DNA of 32,013 bases from a virus. The translations under genes and the position numbers were made by a program. Position 1 is the first letter of the stretch; each line of letters opens with the position of its first letter. The notes under the pieces are model-generated. The model was not told where the DNA came from. It did not search any database and saw only the letters and a program-made list of their open reading frames with translations. The DNA is taken from UHGV virus genome UHGV-0351843. One strand, given 5' to 3'. Positions 1 through 16,603 of this stretch are shown here, piece by piece.

Positions 1-486
1 TATCGCGTCCTCAACAATGAATTTTGTGATGCAGTGCCTGGTGCCTCCAGGTGACGTTAACCAGTTAACAATTAACGCCGGATACAGAGAATCCACCCAT
101 AACACTGTTTTTGGTTTTAACTGTTCCGCGTGCGCTTAGCCGCATTCACCGCATCACAAAATTCACTTTAAAAACGGCGGCAGAGCAGTCACGGAGTAAA
201 ACTGATACCGCCAAACGTCACCAGAAAATTGATAACAGAGGGCGTTGCAGCGGGGTTGTCACTTAAGCGTATGGTCAACCTGACAACTCGGTGTCCTCAA
301 CGGGGAAGGAATAACCCCGCCATACTTACCGCCGCGCCATTTCGCGGGTTGCCACAACCGGAAGCGCACGGTCGAATTAAATTTAACGACACCGTACAGT
401 GAGACGAACTTCGCCGTGCGCTTTCGTGTTGTGTGCCTGCTTTTAACCACGTCAGGCGAGGTGGTATCCTTAAAATCACCACAGTT

Positions 487-4559: not shown

Positions 4560-5951
4560 TTATGCTTCATGTTGCTTTTTGAGATCGCTTCTAGCATAGC
4601 TCCACTCAATAATGTTGTCGGGTCGTTGCTGATCGAAAAGGATACGGGATTCAATACCATTACCTAAAAAGCTGGTATTCCCATCTACGTAAGAAGCTAT
4701 CCCTTGTGAACCAACACGAAGAATATTTTCTAATGGCTGCTTTGTTCTTGCTGCATCGCTAAGGAGATATAAACCCGGGTACGTTTTGTTAGCACGGTGA
4801 AAAAAAAGTTCATTGTCAAAACACATGACGATGATTATTTGTCCCGACATGAGATCGGAGAGCATTTCAGTTGGCAGATGCAAACTCATAAATGGTCGAG
4901 ACAAAGGGTCAAAGAATGAATCATTTATATTCACAACAGGGCTTTTTATACCGAGACTATCCATCCATCCATTGAAGGCAACAAAGCCCATTTCAGAATC
5001 ACGGTACATACCTAAGAACAAACATTCATCAATAGTATCAATTGCCCAATTTTTTCCTCCGCGAATAATCTCCCACATTTTAACTAAGCGGTGGGTATAA
5101 AATTCAGACGGATGATCTATCTCATTGATTTTAACTTTAGACTGATGAAAGTTGTCAAAGCCCTCGCCAGTATTAATCGCCTCCAGAACATTCATGCCAC
5201 GAATGATTTGCCTTTTTATGCGATTAAATTGCTTAACATCATTATCAGGCATATTGTTAATGAAGTTTTCTTCAAAGTGCGGACATTCTGAGATAACAGA
5301 AAATTCAGCAGCTTCATAAAGCTCATTATTCTTTTCACCTGTTTTAACTTCCACGAGCTGGAAGCCATCCAGTAGATTAAAGGTGACTAAATCTCCCACA
5401 TGAACAAATGTGCTCATGTCAGAGACAATCGCTACGGAGTGTTTGTCCTGGTTGATAAGATCGGCTGCGACCATAGAATCAATTATGTTATCTTCTGATA
5501 GATTGTCATTGCTTGCATTAATAGGTAAACGCCGCAAACTAGAGTGTTCTTCATCAAGAATGCTCCAAATTATTGAGTCAATACAACGGCGAAGAATAAG
5601 AATTTCAAATTTTTTTAAACTTATTTCATCAATACACTTTTCTTTATTTTCTTTATCCTTGTTTCGATGGTGCTCTTTTTTTTCAGTTTCCAATCTTTTT
5701 ATATCTCTCAGCCGAATAATAATCTCAAAAGATATGATTTTTTGTGAGTCTTTCCAATTTTTGAGACAGGTTTCATACTCTGCAAGAAAATCCTCATCAT
5801 TGGAAGGTAGTTCTTGAATTGGATTCCCTCCCCTTATCATTTTGGCAAGTGCATGCATTAAAGATACATAATGAGGTGATAAAATTGTCCAAAACTTCCT
5901 AAACGGTTTGTACTTTTCAAGAAAAGTTGACTCATCAGTATAATTCATCAT
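4560..5951 (-). CDS. hypothetical protein, candidate defence effector with a possible PD-(D/E)xK-like motif
   Basis: 463-aa minus-strand ORF (track 4560..5957 begins at TTG; ATG at 5949-5951 with GAGG upstream) in an AT-rich island. The central segment HVGDLVTFNLLDGFQLVEVKTGEK fits a D...(E)xK nuclease-type motif. It lies directly downstream of the AbiH-like gene on the same strand. Confidence 0.7.
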   Translation of the reverse strand: MMNYTDESTFLEKYKPFRKFWTILSPHYVSLMHALAKMIRGGNPIQELPSNDEDFLAEYETCLKNWKDSQKIISFEIIIRLRDIKRLETEKKEHHRNKDKENKEKCIDEISLKKFEILILRRCIDSIIWSILDEEHSSLRRLPINASNDNLSEDNIIDSMVAADLINQDKHSVAIVSDMSTFVHVGDLVTFNLLDGFQLVEVKTGEKNNELYEAAEFSVISECPHFEENFINNMPDNDVKQFNRIKRQIIRGMNVLEAINTGEGFDNFHQSKVKINEIDHPSEFYTHRLVKMWEIIRGGKNWAIDTIDECLFLGMYRDSEMGFVAFNGWMDSLGIKSPVVNINDSFFDPLSRPFMSLHLPTEMLSDLMSGQIIIVMCFDNELFFHRANKTYPGLYLLSDAARTKQPLENILRVGSQGIASYVDGNTSFLGNGIESRILFDQQRPDNIIEWSYARSDLKKQHEA

Positions 5952-6040
5952 AACCAAACCTCATTCCTCTTATCTATTTTCCTCAAGGTATAAAATACCA
6001 GCCTTTTTTACATAATTATAGTTATAATATGAAGTCTCAT

Positions 6041-6910
6041 TCAGATATCTTCATACTGTACGTAAGAAATATTTGAGCCTCTGATACCATAATCTTCTAA
6101 ACTGCCTGATTTTTTCTCACCTCTATATAAAGCAACTATCCATCGAGCATTTTCTTGGATGCTTTTATTTATTTCAGTAAAGTATTCACCGTCAACTTCG
6201 GCGAGCGAGTGGCCTAAAACGATGACCTCGTCCACATTTTTAAGCGATGAGAAAAAAACGTTTTCTTCTTTAATTATGTCTTCGCTGGGCTTGAATGTAT
6301 TACCGAAGTATTCGTTTATTCTGTCGTATGCCTCTGCTATTCTTGTATCTTGATCCGGTCCTATATATGGATTTAGTGACTTTTCCACCCTAAAACTATG
6401 ACCAAGTATGAGATCGTCATCGTAACTACAATTGCCGTGAATATGTATGATTTGCTCGTCTGGAACGGCATAGATCTGCTGCAAGGTATTTGTATAATTA
6501 AATGAAAAATAGATGCTTTCTCTTGGTATGGGCGGGATGTATTGCTTAGGATTGTAAGCATCGGCTATGTTAATCCCTTTAACCCAATCAGCGAATTGCT
6601 CCTTCAAACGAGCTGACAGCATTTGTGTGATTTTATTTACTTCATATTGGTAATCGTGATGATAAGCATCGCTCCAATCATCGGTATTGTATGAAGCCAA
6701 AAATATCTCACTGTTTTGAAGGATAAGCTCATAATCAATTTCACCTAAAGCATTTTCTAACTCATTCCACTCGTCCCCAGCAGGAATGTATTCTTCTATC
6801 GCGTCATATAGATCTTGGTCATTTTTTTCTACATACGACTTAAAGTGCTTGTATCCTGTTGGTAAGCCATGACGCATGTCAAATCCATTTCCTATTATGT
6901 AAAGCCTCAT
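6041..6910 (-). CDS. AbiH-like abortive-infection family protein
   Basis: ORF 6041..6961; the likely start is Met18 at 6908-6910 with AAGGGA upstream. The N-terminus MRLYIIGNGFDMRHGLPTGYKHF matches my recollection of the conserved N-terminal motif of the AbiH family; this needs HMM confirmation. AT-rich codon usage unlike the flanking phage genes. Confidence 0.65.
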   Translation of the reverse strand: MRLYIIGNGFDMRHGLPTGYKHFKSYVEKNDQDLYDAIEEYIPAGDEWNELENALGEIDYELILQNSEIFLASYNTDDWSDAYHHDYQYEVNKITQMLSARLKEQFADWVKGINIADAYNPKQYIPPIPRESIYFSFNYTNTLQQIYAVPDEQIIHIHGNCSYDDDLILGHSFRVEKSLNPYIGPDQDTRIAEAYDRINEYFGNTFKPSEDIIKEENVFFSSLKNVDEVIVLGHSLAEVDGEYFTEINKSIQENARWIVALYRGEKKSGSLEDYGIRGSNISYVQYEDI

Positions 6911-7224
6911 TGTTTTTCCCTTAGTCGAATTGTATAAAAATACTAACATGGCCTGCTCCACGTTGACTACTATCCCCTCCTTTGAGTAATGCCTTCATCA
7001 GATGTAACAACATTTGCGAGCTTCCACAGTTCGCTCAAAGCGGACTAGAAGGTTAGCTTGCGTCGGACTTGGCGTATTTAAAGAAGTGCTGGTGGAGACT
7101 GGTTGTTGTGTTCCATTTCTACAGAACAAAATCACAGAAACTATACCCAATAGTTATATTGAATCAATGATGAGACAGCCTCATATTTATCAGGACTGGT
7201 GTACGTCCAATACAGGAGGTTGTC

Positions 7225-7314
7225 GTGCTGGTTCTCAAATGTGCGCTAGCTATTGCGGCTGTAATGGCAATTTATTGTCTTGCTGTTGTTCTTACGGATC
7301 GCCTTTCTGATTGA
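7225..7314 (+). CDS. candidate small hydrophobic peptide (29 aa)
   Basis: AGGAGG followed 5 nt later by GTG. The translation VLVLKCALAIAAVMAIYCLAVVLTDRLSD is a single predicted TM helix with a short charged tail. It overlaps the 98-aa track ORF 7014..7310 in another frame. Confidence 0.3.
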   Translation: MLVLKCALAIAAVMAIYCLAVVLTDRLSD

Positions 7315-7525
7315 TTTTATATTGGCGAGGTGACGTGAGTTAAGTAGAATTGCTGCGGGTGCTTGAGGCTATCTGCCTCAGGCATGAACACCAAAGGCAG
7401 ATAGAGAAAAGCCCCAGTTAACATTACGCGTCCTGCAAGACGCTTAACATTAATCTGAGGCCAATTTCATGCTAGACACATGTAGGTTAGCCTCTTACGT
7501 GCCGAAAGGCAAGGAGAAGCAGGCT

Positions 7526-7681
7526 ATGAAGCAGCAAAAGGCGATGTTAATCGCCCTGATCGTCATCTGTTTAACCGTCATAGTGACGGCACTGGTAACG
7601 AGGAAAGACCTCTGCGAGGTACGAATCCGAACCGGCCAGACGGAGGTCGCTGTCTTCACAGCTTACGAACCTGAGGAGTAA
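7526..7681 (+). CDS. hok: Hok/Gef-family type I toxin
   Basis: 51-aa product MKQQKAMLIALIVICLTVIVTALVTRKDLCEVRIRTGQTEVAVFTAYEPEE with AAGGAG upstream. It has the Hok family signature (N-terminal TM helix plus the CEVR motif) and matches my recollection of HokD/RelF-type chromosomal Hok proteins. An in-frame upstream ATG at 7469 could give a Mok-like extension. Confidence 0.85.
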   Translation: MKQQKAMLIALIVICLTVIVTALVTRKDLCEVRIRTGQTEVAVFTAYEPEE

Positions 7682-7750
7682 GAGACCAGGCGAGGGAGAA
7701 ATCCCTCGCCACCTCTGATGTGTCAGGCATCCTCAATGCACCCGCACTTA

Positions 7751-7775
7751 ACCCGCTTCGGCGGGTTTATTTTAT
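7751..7775 (+). terminator. rho-independent terminator downstream of hok
   Basis: Stem acccgc / ttcg / gcgggt followed by a T-rich run (tttatttta). Confidence 0.6.
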
Positions 7776-8028
7776 CTGTAAATATTTTTATAAAAATAAT
7801 GCCCACACACAGCATAAAACAAAAAGTATCACAGATAAAAAAGGAGCGTAATGTGCAGATTTGTTGTTTTCCATATTTACTCACTTTAACATAATCAATA
7901 TTGATATGGTTGTTGTTTTGGTGGTTTCAAACGAGATGTTATGGTGATCTGGTAAAATTGCATAACATTAAAATTTAATTTATCTAATCGCTTTTAATAA
8001 TAAGCGTTGTGTTTATCCCAACAATCTG

Positions 8029-10108: not shown

Positions 10109-10164
10109 TGATCTTACCCAGCAATAGTGGACACGCAGCTAAGTGAGTAAACTCTCAGTCAGAG

Positions 10165-10473
10165 GTGACTCACATGACAAAAACAGTATCAACCAGTAAA
10201 AAACCCCGTAAACAGCATTCGTCTGAATTTCGCAGTGAAGCCCTGAAGCTTGCTGAACGCATCGGTGTTACTGCCGCAGCCCGTGAACTCAGCCTGTATG
10301 AATCACAGCTCTACAACTGGCGCAGTAAACAGCAAAATCAGCAGACGTCTTCTGAACGTGAACTGGAGATGTCTACCGAGATTGCACGTCTCAAACGCCA
10401 GCTGGCAGAACGGGATGAAGAGCTGGCTATCCTCCAAAAGGCCGCGACATACTTCGCGAAGCGCCTGAAATGA
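10165..10473 (+). CDS. insE: IS3 OrfA (transposase N-terminal HTH protein)
   Basis: The 102-aa product begins [19 protein letters not shown]... and matches my recollection of IS3 InsE. Confidence 0.9.
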
Positions 10474-11336
10474 AGTATGTCTTTATTGAAAAACATCAGG
10501 CTGAGTTCAGCATCAAAGCAATGTGCCGCGTGCTCCGGGTGGCCCGCAGCGGCTGGTATACGTGGTGTCAGCGGCGGACAAGGATAAGCACGCGTCAGCA
10601 GTTCCGCCAACACTGCGACAGCGTTGTCCTCGCGGCTTTTACCCGGTCAAAACAGCGTTACGGTGCCCCACGCCTGACGGATGAACTGCGTGATCAGGGT
10701 TACCCCTTTAACGTAAAAACCGTGGCGGCAAGCCTGCGCCGTCAGGGACTGAGGGCAAAGGCCTCCCGGAAGTTCAGCCCGGTCAGCTACCGCGCACACG
10801 GCCTGCCTGTGTCAGAAAATCTGTTGGAGCAGGATTTTTACGCCAGTGGCCCGAACCAGAAGTGGGCAGGAGACATCACGTACTTACGTACAGATGAAGG
10901 CTGGCTGTATCTGGCAGTGGTCATTGACCTGTGGTCACGTGCCGTTATTGGCTGGTCAATGTCGCCACGCATGACGGCGCAACTGGCCTGCGATGCCCTG
11001 CAGATGGCGCTGTGGCGGCGTAAGAGGCCCCGGAACGTTATCGTTCACACGGATCGTGGAGGCCAGTACTGTTCAGCAGATTATCAGGCGCAACTGAAGC
11101 GGCATAATCTGCGTGGAAGTATGAGCGCAAAAGGTTGCTGCTACGATAATGCCTGCGTGGAAAGCTTCTTTCATTCGCTGAAAGTGGAATGTATCCATGG
11201 AGAACACTTTATCAGCCGGGAAATAATGCGGGCAACGGTGTTTAATTATATCGAATGTGATTACAATCGGTGGCGGCGGCACAGTTGGTGTGGCGGCCTC
11301 AGTCCGGAACAATTTGAAAACCAGAACCTCGCTTAG
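10470..11336 (+). CDS. insF: IS3 OrfB (transposase catalytic DDE domain; expressed as an OrfAB fusion by programmed -1 frameshift)
   Basis: 288 aa overlapping orfA by 4 nt, with a DDE integrase-type core (HTDRGGQY...). Frameshift expression is established for the IS3 family; the exact slippery site was not pinpointed. Confidence 0.9.
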
Positions 11337-11366
11337 GCCTGTGTCCATATTACGTGGGTAGGATCA

Positions 11367-15823: not shown

Positions 15824-16186
15824 ATTAATATTAAATCGGATTATTTTTAGCGCTGAATGTGAAATTTAAATAAAAAGGACTCTTCCATGAGTCAAAATCC
15901 TTGAAATCTTAAGGGTAAGATAAAAGGTCATTAGACAGAATGACACGTTTTATTAATAAATAAAGCTATTGTTTCATTCGTGTGTTTTTCTTTACAAAAG
16001 TAATCCTTGCTATGGTTGGTTAATCATGCGTTAATGGTGTTCTGGTTTGTTACAAAATTATCTGAAGCAGTCATTGTTATAATTTTATTATTTGTACCTC
16101 TTGAGATTTCCTTGTTGGTTTTTCTCTCTGATATTTTTTTTCGGACCATTCTGCCCAAGGGCTAACTTCTTCAAAAGGTAATAATG

Positions 16187-16399
16187 ATGTCTAACAAAAT
16201 GACTGGTTTAGTGAAATGGTTTAACCCTGAAAAAGGTTTTGGTTTCATCACGCCGAAAGATGGTAGCAAAGATGTGTTTGTGCATTTCTCAGCTATTCAG
16301 AGCAACGATTTCAAAACGTTAACTGAGAATCAGGAAGTCGAATTTGGTATTGAGAACGGACCTAAAGGCCCTGCAGCTGTTCATGTAGTGGCACTTTGA
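16187..16399 (+). CDS. cspI: cold-shock protein, CspA family
   Basis: The 70-aa product [70 protein letters not shown] has RNP1/RNP2-like motifs (KGFGFI, VFVHF). It is preceded by a long AT-rich leader. Confidence 0.9.
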
Positions 16400-16603
16400 G
16401 GTAGAAAATATTACAAACCATATTCACTTTAGATGCCCGTGTTGCCATGGTTCTCAGTATAGAACATCATCTTTTGATGTTTCTGACAGAAATCCTTTCG
16501 GGGCAAAATGTATCTTTTGTAAATCAATGATGATTACATTTGATAATATTTCACAATACTTAAATGTTAGCCATCTGTCGTTAGATTTAAGAAAGTGAAA
16601 ATG

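Follow-up and report, generated by a model that had tools for sequence, protein, structure and literature searches.

Does the segment between the replication genes and Q of this lambdoid prophage encode a complete type I toxin-antitoxin system, or is it what remains of one? We addressed this question in a window of 32,013 nucleotides, which is the whole stretch of DNA that was analysed (UHGV virus genome UHGV-0351843). A preliminary description had proposed a Hok/Gef type I toxin locus there, with a Mok-like reading frame, mRNA fold-back elements and a terminator, and family matches (PF01848 and RF01794), folds and scans support this proposal. The features that it listed were all present, within a base or two of where it had placed them (the hok ATG is at 7526, not 7527). 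We conclude that positions 7322-7775 almost certainly constitute a hok/mok/sok type I toxin-antitoxin cassette that is intact and belongs to the hokD/hokW/hokC (Gef) subgroup, carried by a Qin-like lambdoid prophage of E. coli (Table 1). Such a cassette is already known: it is textbook material and very common in E. coli, and the understanding of hok/sok biology is unchanged by it.

Table 1. Coordinates of the cassette features in the window, with the detail or evidence that defines each
Feature	Position	Strand	Detail or evidence
hok mRNA promoter	7322..7350	+	-35 TTGGCG (7322-7327), 17-bp spacer, -10 TAGAAT (7345-7350)
Predicted full-length hok mRNA, ~419 nt	7357..7775	+	MFE fold
tac element GGGUGCUUGAGG at mRNA 5′ end	7357..7368	+	partner is fbi (full-length fold) or ucb (truncated fold)
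Leader hairpin	7369..7404	+	stem CTATCTGCCT 7369-7378 / AGGCAGATAG 7395-7404, perfect 10 bp, 16-nt loop
tac partner in metastable nascent hairpin, GCCUCAGGCAU	7375..7385	+	folds of short 5′ fragments
ucb / anti-SD box AAGCCCCAG	7409..7417	+	alternative pairings in the two folds
Sok antisense RNA (predicted), ~71 nt	7407..7477	-	coordinates transferred from 933W sokW misc_RNA via alignment
Sok-target hairpin of truncated mRNA	7457..7494	+	mok SD GAGG 7457-7460 with dcb GCCUC 7490-7494
mok reading frame, 70 codons	7469..7681	+	ORF list; in frame with hok
Sok promoter	7484..7512	-	-35 TTGCCT (7512->7507), 17-bp spacer, -10 TAACCT (7489->7484)
hok toxin gene, 51 aa	7526..7681	+	PF01848; SD AAGGAG 7511-7516 upstream
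UACG at Tyr47 codon, candidate TadA A-to-I editing-type site (Tyr->Cys)	7664..7667	+	sequence identity
3′ UTR hairpin GGCGAGGGA/UCCCUCGCC	7689..7710	+	perfect 9-bp inverted repeat; present in both folds
3′ fold-back region	7718..7743	+	7718-7730 pairs with mok start region 7469-7481; fbi 7731-7743 pairs with tac
Intrinsic terminator of hok mRNA	7750..7775	+	stem 7750-7767 (7 pairs, 5 G-C), then T-run TATTTTATCT; terminator scan

The 51-aa product matched the Pfam family HOK_GEF (PF01848) over the complete profile (positions 1-42 of 42), with E=1.2e-23 and 82.9 bits against a cut-off of 22. The protein is exactly identical to HOKD_ECOLI, the HokD/RelF protein of E. coli K-12, and this sequence occurs on at least 1000 public contigs. 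The preliminary description had made its reading depend on a Hok-family ORF free of inactivating substitutions, and none separate the window from K-12 HokD, which is reported to be toxic; a survey preprint reports toxicity for HokD and for 42 of 45 tested Hok homologues. All 16 columns that are invariant among eight aligned Hok proteins, including the two cysteines and the TRK motif, are retained in the window, by construction because the window protein belongs to this alignment. NCBIfam Hok models scored below their curated cut-offs (48.5 versus 73 bits), and PADLOC had no model matching Hok; we regard both outcomes as uninformative.

The in-frame upstream ATG at 7469, suggested earlier as the start of a Mok-like frame, lies 57 nt 5′ of the hok ATG and opens a 70-aa ORF. 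This mok frame has its own Shine-Dalgarno sequence (GAGG, 7457-7460) and ends at the hok stop codon; its exact 70-aa sequence is found on at least 1000 public contigs. Mok is 68-70 codons long in all eight homologues, either in frame with hok or at +1. The window, hokW, hokC and two further copies have mok in frame (offset 57); the R1-type loci and one plasmid copy that is 88% identical have it at +1 (offset 58). Because the frame varies while the length is kept, translation through the region is what is conserved, not the Mok protein sequence.

Near the end of hok, the sequence TACGAA is invariant in all eight aligned genes, and a local fold places UACG in a 9-nt loop. TadA editing of this kind has been stated by a preprint to occur in hokD mRNA; solely from the identity with K-12 hokD, we infer that the Tyr47 codon may be edited here as well. 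Other short ORFs overlap the cassette on either strand (for example 7495-7659, minus strand); they had no family match or lay inside hok, and were dismissed as chance. A cysteine-rich 98-aa ORF further upstream (7014-7310) had no family match and was treated in the same way.

A sigma-70 consensus scan matched the hok mRNA promoter at 9 of 12 positions, and its -10 element is kept in 933W, mEp460 and HannyBb. On the plus strand, 7357-7531 matched the Rfam family RF01794 ('sok') with E=4.7e-27, scoring 119.9 bits where the gathering score is 59. Judging from the start of this model and from the conserved 5′ end, the mRNA probably begins at about 7357. At the other end, the GC stem and T-run that had been noticed earlier were found again by a terminator scan (stem 7750-7767, then TATTTTATCT), and it is at about 7768 that K-12 hokD and phages mEp460 and Tritos stop being homologous to the window.

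We then considered the structure of the transcript, by thermodynamic prediction throughout. The full-length RNA (7357-7775) folded at -178.2 kcal/mol, with z=-11.2 relative to 100 shuffles. Structure prediction had been proposed in the preliminary description as a check on the locus, and the full-length and 3′-truncated folds reproduced the R1 hok mRNA switch. When the RNA was folded at full length, GGGTGCTTGAGG at the 5′ end (7357-7368) paired with fbi CCTCAATGCACCC (7731-7743) in both the MFE and centroid structures, with a duplex energy of -21.5 kcal/mol, and 7411-7417 paired with 7455-7461, which holds the mok SD. In the truncated fold (7357-7718), the 5′ end of tac (7357-7364) moved onto 7409-7415; the SD segment 7457-7461 paired with 7490-7494, and the mok AUG was placed within this SD/dcb stem. 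The first 30-52 nt were predicted to fold as a hairpin (7359-7369 / 7375-7385) of -19.6 kcal/mol. The published R1 hok model comprises tac/fbi, ucb/SDmok, tac/ucb, the SDmok/dcb stem and a metastable hairpin (PMC9841398), and the pairings predicted in the window correspond one-for-one to the R1 structures in that paper.

Several elements were common to the full-length and truncated folds. In both, the distal part of the hok coding region (7649-7672) was paired to the segment with the SD and AUG of hok (7512-7535), a masking that would be consistent with hok translation needing ribosomes on mok. The hairpin at 7689-7710 likely protects the 3′ end of the processed mRNA, by analogy with R1. The leader hairpin was also present in both. 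It corresponds to the long inverted repeat pointed out earlier, which does exist as a perfect 10-bp stem but is not a separate element: it is the upper part of the tac-stem. A second proposal, that an 'aggcat' motif shared by the leader and the 3′ end provides the 5′/3′ pairing, was rejected. The shared motif is real, but the two copies of TCAGGCAT (7378-7385 and 7723-7730) form a direct repeat and so cannot pair with each other; the true pair is tac/fbi. The first copy lies within the metastable tac partner and the second within the 3′ segment that masks the mok start.

We compared eight aligned transcripts: the window, 933W hokW, a plasmid copy, two divergent chromosomal copies, hokC and two R1-type plasmid loci. 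When the full-length structure was projected on these homologues, 82% of the cells were paired versus 35-42% in slid controls, a flattering percentage given that the sequences are few (eight) and that one of them, the window, supplied the projected structure. In 31 pairs both sides had changed, compared to 20.7 +/- 3.1 in shuffles, and this count was equalled in 1 of 500 shuffles. Among the individual helices, tac/fbi was 88% paired in the homologues, the truncated-form helices 83.5% and the tac/ucb helix 92.6%. The leader hairpin was 94% paired, with three pairs changed on both sides, and the 7689-7710 hairpin also had three such pairs. The consensus structure of RF01794 contains the same tac/ucb and SD/dcb helices. 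In an independent duplex search, the first 14 nt were compared with the 140 nt past the stop codon at nine loci. The 5′/3′ duplex was found in nine of nine, with GGGUGC:GCACCC becoming GGCGC:GCGCC in the R1-type loci; the two sides thus covary. Stronger evidence than the pairing percentage comes from the pairs with both sides changed and from this independent duplex search.

Where is the antitoxin? A Sok-like antisense RNA had been expected on the minus strand of the leader, and alignment with sokW together with the identity of the sokW promoter now places it at 7477->7407. A consensus sigma-70 scan of 7200-7900 gave no minus-strand promoter in the mok/hok overlap; the Sok promoter was missed because its weak -10, TAACCT, matches the consensus at 3 of 6 positions only. 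It was located by homology and from published mutagenesis primers, and the minus-strand promoter search thus ended on TTGCCT/TAACCT at 7512->7484, which is the sokW promoter verified by mutation. Positions 7478-7520 are identical in the window and in 933W/Sp5, and the -35 core overlaps CAAGGAGAAG, which is invariant among the aligned homologues. In the 'pro-less' sokW allele of Sp5, primers YO-421/422 turn TAGGTTA into CCGGCTC and antitoxin activity is lost (Takada et al., PMC8621323). Supplying sokW in trans restores the antitoxin function of this allele, and a Northern blot revealed sokW RNA in Sp5 (PMC8621323). The altered TAGGTTA is exactly the complement of the window Sok -10. Identity with this mutation-verified promoter identifies the sok gene and its promoter in the window, and transcription from it is predicted.

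The predicted Sok consists of a single-stranded 5′ tail of about 15 nt (7463-7477), one long hairpin and a 3′ UUUU. It folds at -28.7 to -30.3 kcal/mol (z=-5.3), and at its 5′ end it shares 9 nt with the start of mok, as sokC does with mokC in the curated K-12 annotation. The RF01794 score, the z-score of the mRNA fold and that of the Sok fold are all far beyond chance. A permissive Rfam search also returned a misplaced minus-strand 'sok' match (7279-7415, 18 bits, E=0.12), which we rejected as chance, and weak matches to ceN48, rsmX, CRISPR-DR46, Phe_leader and Fungi_SRP, which were rejected because they lay far under their gathering scores.

Comparison with known systems shows how the locus is related to them. 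The hokW-mokW-sokW locus of the Stx2 phages 933W and Sp5 (VT2-Sakai) shares 94% nucleotide identity over 7337-7753, with the same in-frame 70-codon mok, tac, ucb and fbi and an identical sok promoter. HokW is 92% identical to the window Hok, and four C-terminal residues differ (TAYEPEE vs VDYESEK). Of seven substitutions within the Sok span, six fall at 7462-7475, inside or beside the predicted 5′ tail; from these tail differences, cross-neutralisation between SokW and the window Sok may be reduced. The -35 region of the hok promoter and the 3′ end/terminator also differ, and the 933W cassette lies near the right end of its genome whereas that of the window lies between the replication genes and Q. 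The window cassette is an allelic variant of hokW-sokW that differs in Sok tail, Hok C-terminus and genome position. [quoted passage not shown]

The relation to K-12 hokD (relF), in the cryptic prophage Qin, is of another kind. Its DNA is identical to the window from the hok SD (7513) to the stop codon, the encoded protein is identical, and the 3′ UTR up to the terminator (7768) has four differences (~98% identical); the position relative to rem/ydfU/Q is also the same. However, relBE replaces the promoter, tac, ucb, the mok start and the whole of sok in K-12, where the 3′ end of relE lies upstream of 7513, whereas the window has a complete regulatory leader and no relBE. The K-12 architecture, a leaderless hok directly 3′ of relBE, was thus not found in the window, whose architecture is of the hokW/hokC type. 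By sequence, the locus in the window appears to be undisrupted, and K-12 hokD to be a copy deprived of its leader.

More distant relatives share the same design. The chromosomal hokC (gef)-mokC-sokC locus of E. coli is about 75% identical in nucleotides over most of the transcript and has an in-frame mok (69 codons), the 9-nt overlap of sok with the mok start and the same tac/fbi duplex. It differs in lying in the core chromosome beside dnaJ/nhaA, not in a prophage, and in having a shorter leader hairpin; in K-12, IS186 sits just downstream (the IS186A end is ~20 bp away). The hok/mok/sok (parB) locus of R1 and related IncF plasmids also has the tac/fbi and tac/ucb pairings, the metastable hairpin, a mok-coupled hok of the same Pfam family and an antisense Sok with its promoter in the mok/hok overlap. 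On the other hand, R1 Hok is 43% identical to the window Hok, R1 mok is at +1 (offset 58) and the R1 leader hairpin is longer. Plasmid addiction is proven for R1, while the window holds a prophage copy known from sequence.

The cassette is widespread. At least 183 E. coli records contain it at 100% identity, and a megablast search with 7300-7800 returned 100% identical copies in many E. coli chromosomes, plus 102 phage records. A more sensitive search gave a match in all 5426 of 5426 complete E. coli genomes, 5359 of them with at least 80% of the query covered, at a median of 4 copies per genome. PGAP annotation of the 100% identical chromosomes gives 'hokD' only.

The window itself is collinear with a Qin-like prophage of E. 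coli ECCWS199, at 99.8% over the first 15 kb and 96% in the last aligned block. DicF RNA, immunity and replication genes, a 464-aa unknown gene and AbiH (PF14253, E=8e-69; also called as AbiH by PADLOC) precede the hok cassette; it is followed by a small unknown gene, ydfU (DUF968), Q, lysis genes, cspI, terminase, head and tail genes. The earlier placement of the locus between a defence gene (AbiH) and the DUF968/Q genes is thus borne out by family matches. The prophage also contains an IS3-family element, at 10110-11365. Homology with phages begins at or just before the hok promoter and ends at the terminator, the flanking genes being different, and the G+C content of the cassette is 52% versus 43% and 33% in the flanks. 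These limits and differing flanks, with the other position of the cassette in 933W and its G+C content, leave us nearly certain that it is a self-contained promoter-to-terminator module, located here between the replication genes and Q.

Directly 5′ of the hok promoter lies a 29-aa hydrophobic ORF (7225-7314) with an AGGAGG SD, which is conserved and never annotated. It accompanies hok in about one third of E. coli genomes, behind varying defence-like cargo.

We weighed three other readings of the locus. That the plus strand carries the RF01794 match (7357-7531, 119.9 bits), and that the sole minus-strand match is the displaced one of 18 bits (7279-7415), would suit a small RNA derived from the 5′ leader on the same strand as hok, not an antisense RNA. 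Yet the final positions of RF01794 fall on the SD and AUG of hok, and its helices are the tac-stem and the target hairpin of hok mRNA, so the model describes the sense leader and does not tell on which strand the antitoxin lies. Moreover, the annotated sokW (933W) and sokC (K-12) are opposite in strand to hok and the mutation-verified sokW promoter reads the minus strand, and we consider a same-strand RNA extremely improbable. The locus could also be a decayed, non-functional relic like those of K-12, its toxin never made and its conserved elements mere leftovers. K-12 offers precedents, with IS186A about 20 bp past hokC and a hokD that lost mok, sok and tac to relBE, and the prophage of the window has its own IS3-family element (10110-11365). 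But this element is 2.3 kb off and outside the cassette, within which promoter, tac, ucb, mok, sok promoter, hok, 3′ hairpin, fbi and terminator are all present and uninterrupted. Many genomes carry this sequence at 100% identity, its close homologue hokW-sokW functions, and the prophage retains lysis, terminase, head and tail ORFs. We found no argument in the sequence itself against an intact cassette, and decay is very improbable. One point speaks for decay and bears on function: in the text quoted in the survey preprint, chromosomal hokA, hokB and hokC are reported without post-segregational killing. A locus that is intact in sequence therefore need not be an addiction module.

A third reading accepts a working type I toxin-antitoxin system and differs on what it was selected for, namely anti-phage defence by abortive infection, as part of the defence cargo beside AbiH, and not prophage stabilisation or help with lysis. 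The cassette is directly beside the AbiH gene and the 464-aa unknown gene; in other prophages it follows defence-like cargo (DUF262 plus an AAA ATPase), and a phage-defence role has been reported for R1 hok/sok, as mentioned in the survey preprint. This preprint, however, notes in its Discussion no enrichment of hok near defence systems. Nor does PADLOC offer a model matching Hok, and the 933W cassette sits elsewhere, near the right end of the phage genome. For the closest homologue, experiments have shown one role only: on induction it speeds lysis and doubles the phage yield. We judge defence to be an unlikely selected role, although clearly less so than decay.

Read as an intact hok/mok/sok cassette, the locus would work as follows. 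The promoter at 7322-7350 would be constitutive and yield a stable mRNA of about 420 nt; promoter and terminator can be read from the DNA, and stability is expected. The nascent 5′ end would fold into the metastable hairpin and, on completion of the transcript, tac would pair with fbi while ucb masks the mok ribosome-binding site and the 3′ segment masks the mok start codon. These pairings are found in silico and are conserved, and the full-length RNA would consequently be neither translated nor bound by Sok. Slow 3′ trimming would then remove fbi, so that tac switches to ucb, as in the alternative fold, and the mok SD enters the hairpin that presents the Sok target. An unstable 71-nt Sok from the 7512->7484 promoter would pair with the mok initiation region and lead to RNase III cleavage; both the decay of Sok and this cleavage are expected from R1 and Sp5 hokW-sokW. 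Once Sok is gone, through prophage loss, a transcription block or induction, mok would be translated, opening the hok start that is otherwise paired with the distal hok coding region, and the 51-aa Hok would insert in the inner membrane and kill or lyse the cell. The 3′ processing, RNase III cleavage, unstable Sok with stable mRNA, and killing have been shown for hokW-sokW (PMC8621323) and R1 (PMC9841398). Given the identity with HokD and the near-identity with hokW-sokW, we predict this molecular mechanism with high confidence.

The biological role is less certain than the mechanism. By analogy with hokW-sokW, it is likely to be prophage stabilisation and/or help with lysis on induction. After mitomycin C, the hokW-sokW antitoxin RNA vanishes and HokW appears about 1 h before endolysin, and deletion of hokW-sokW delays growth arrest and halves the phage yield (PMC8621323). 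The survey preprint finds hok enriched in prophages, not near defence systems. Phage exclusion is possible, as is prophage stabilisation.

The cassette might also be larger than the classical unit, the 29-aa ORF being a second small membrane toxin or a modulator of Hok (acting, for example, in abortive infection or lysis timing), but we think this improbable. If it were true, the 29-aa ORF, the in-frame Mok-Hok fusion and TadA editing at Tyr47 would make up a module more elaborate than the R1 paradigm.

The main significance of the locus is for annotation: automatic pipelines label the 51-aa CDS alone, as "hokD", and omit mok and sok. The Rfam "sok" family matches the sense strand of the hok leader, and a naive reading of such a match puts the antitoxin on the wrong strand. 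Our comparison shows K-12 hokD to be the leaderless remnant of the intact prophage cassette described here, and the cassette to move between lambdoid phages as a promoter-to-terminator module.

Immediately upstream of the hok promoter, we found a short unannotated reading frame that would encode a hydrophobic product of 29 residues and is preceded by a Shine-Dalgarno (SD) sequence. This frame stops 8 nt ahead of the hok -35 element. Three other copies, those of phage mEp460, phage HannyBb and another E. coli prophage, keep the ORF intact, with synonymous or conservative changes; a fourth copy is broken by an 11-nt deletion. The stretch that carries it is present in 1928 of 5426 E. coli genomes, and a hok gene lies just downstream at all loci inspected. 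None of the 25 records listed had an annotated feature under the match, and a 34-aa version is named "membrane protein" in a few old GenBank records. The ORF could be a genuine small membrane protein tied to hok, or the stretch could simply be conserved upstream DNA.

The minus strand carries a promoter-like site that is divergent from the hok promoter. It is directed toward AbiH, the defence-type gene (PF14253) that adjoins the cassette, and is antisense to the 29-aa ORF at its 3' end.

Features of the hok neighbourhood and of the surrounding prophage
Feature	Position	Strand	Details
DicF antisense sRNA	175-226	-	Rfam RF00039, 72.5 bits
464-aa ORF	4560-5957	-	directly downstream of AbiH, same strand
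AbiH	6041-6949	-	
SD of 29-aa ORF	7214-7219	+	AGGAGG
29-aa hydrophobic ORF, unannotated	7225-7314	+	GTG start; product MLVLKCALAIAAVMAIYCLAVVLTDRLSD
Promoter-like site	7343->7314	-	TTAACT, 18-bp spacer, TAAAAT
hok Tyr47 codon	7664-7667	+	UAC then G, within TACGAA
Insertion of ~1.26 kb	10110-11365	+	versus ECCWS199 prophage (otherwise 99.8% identical); downstream of Q
cspA thermoregulator match	16029-16445	+	RF01766, 110 bits

The 464-aa ORF next to AbiH had no match in Pfam, PADLOC or NCBIfam, and its homologue is a "hypothetical protein" in the PGAP annotation. The two genes may form a defence operon in which the 464-aa ORF is the partner of AbiH.

Elsewhere in the prophage, DicF lies in the immunity and division-inhibition region, as it does in the Qin prophage. 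In the collinear prophage of E. coli strain ECCWS199, dicB sits just past the point that corresponds to the left end of the window. The RF01766 match falls on a cold-shock gene of the prophage, annotated cspI in the collinear genome, and covers both its 5' UTR and its coding region. Two ORFs in the insertion downstream of the lambdoid gene Q, one matching HTH_Tnp_1 and the other the rve integrase core, indicate that it is an IS3-family element.

Within the hok cassette itself, the Rfam "sok antitoxin" model (RF01794) aligns at 7357-7531 (+) and ends at the hok AUG. The match is to the hok leader in the sense direction, not to the Sok-encoding strand, and an Rfam-based annotation would therefore put the antitoxin on the wrong strand. 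In the coding region, the TACGAA that contains the Tyr47 codon shows no variation among the eight aligned hok genes, and local fold prediction places the codon in a 9-nt loop. According to a preprint, TadA edits the equivalent site of the hokC, hokD and hokE mRNAs (A-to-I, Tyr to Cys).

We compared the mok frame, which starts upstream of hok, across alignment A3 (eight hok transcripts: the window, L001 and L005-L010). The frame is in register with hok in hokD-, hokW- and hokC-type loci. A single-base insertion puts it at +1 to hok in the R1-type loci and in one plasmid copy of 88% identity, but mok is 68-70 codons long throughout. Frame shifts with a conserved mok length indicate that what is selected is translation across this region and not a Mok protein.
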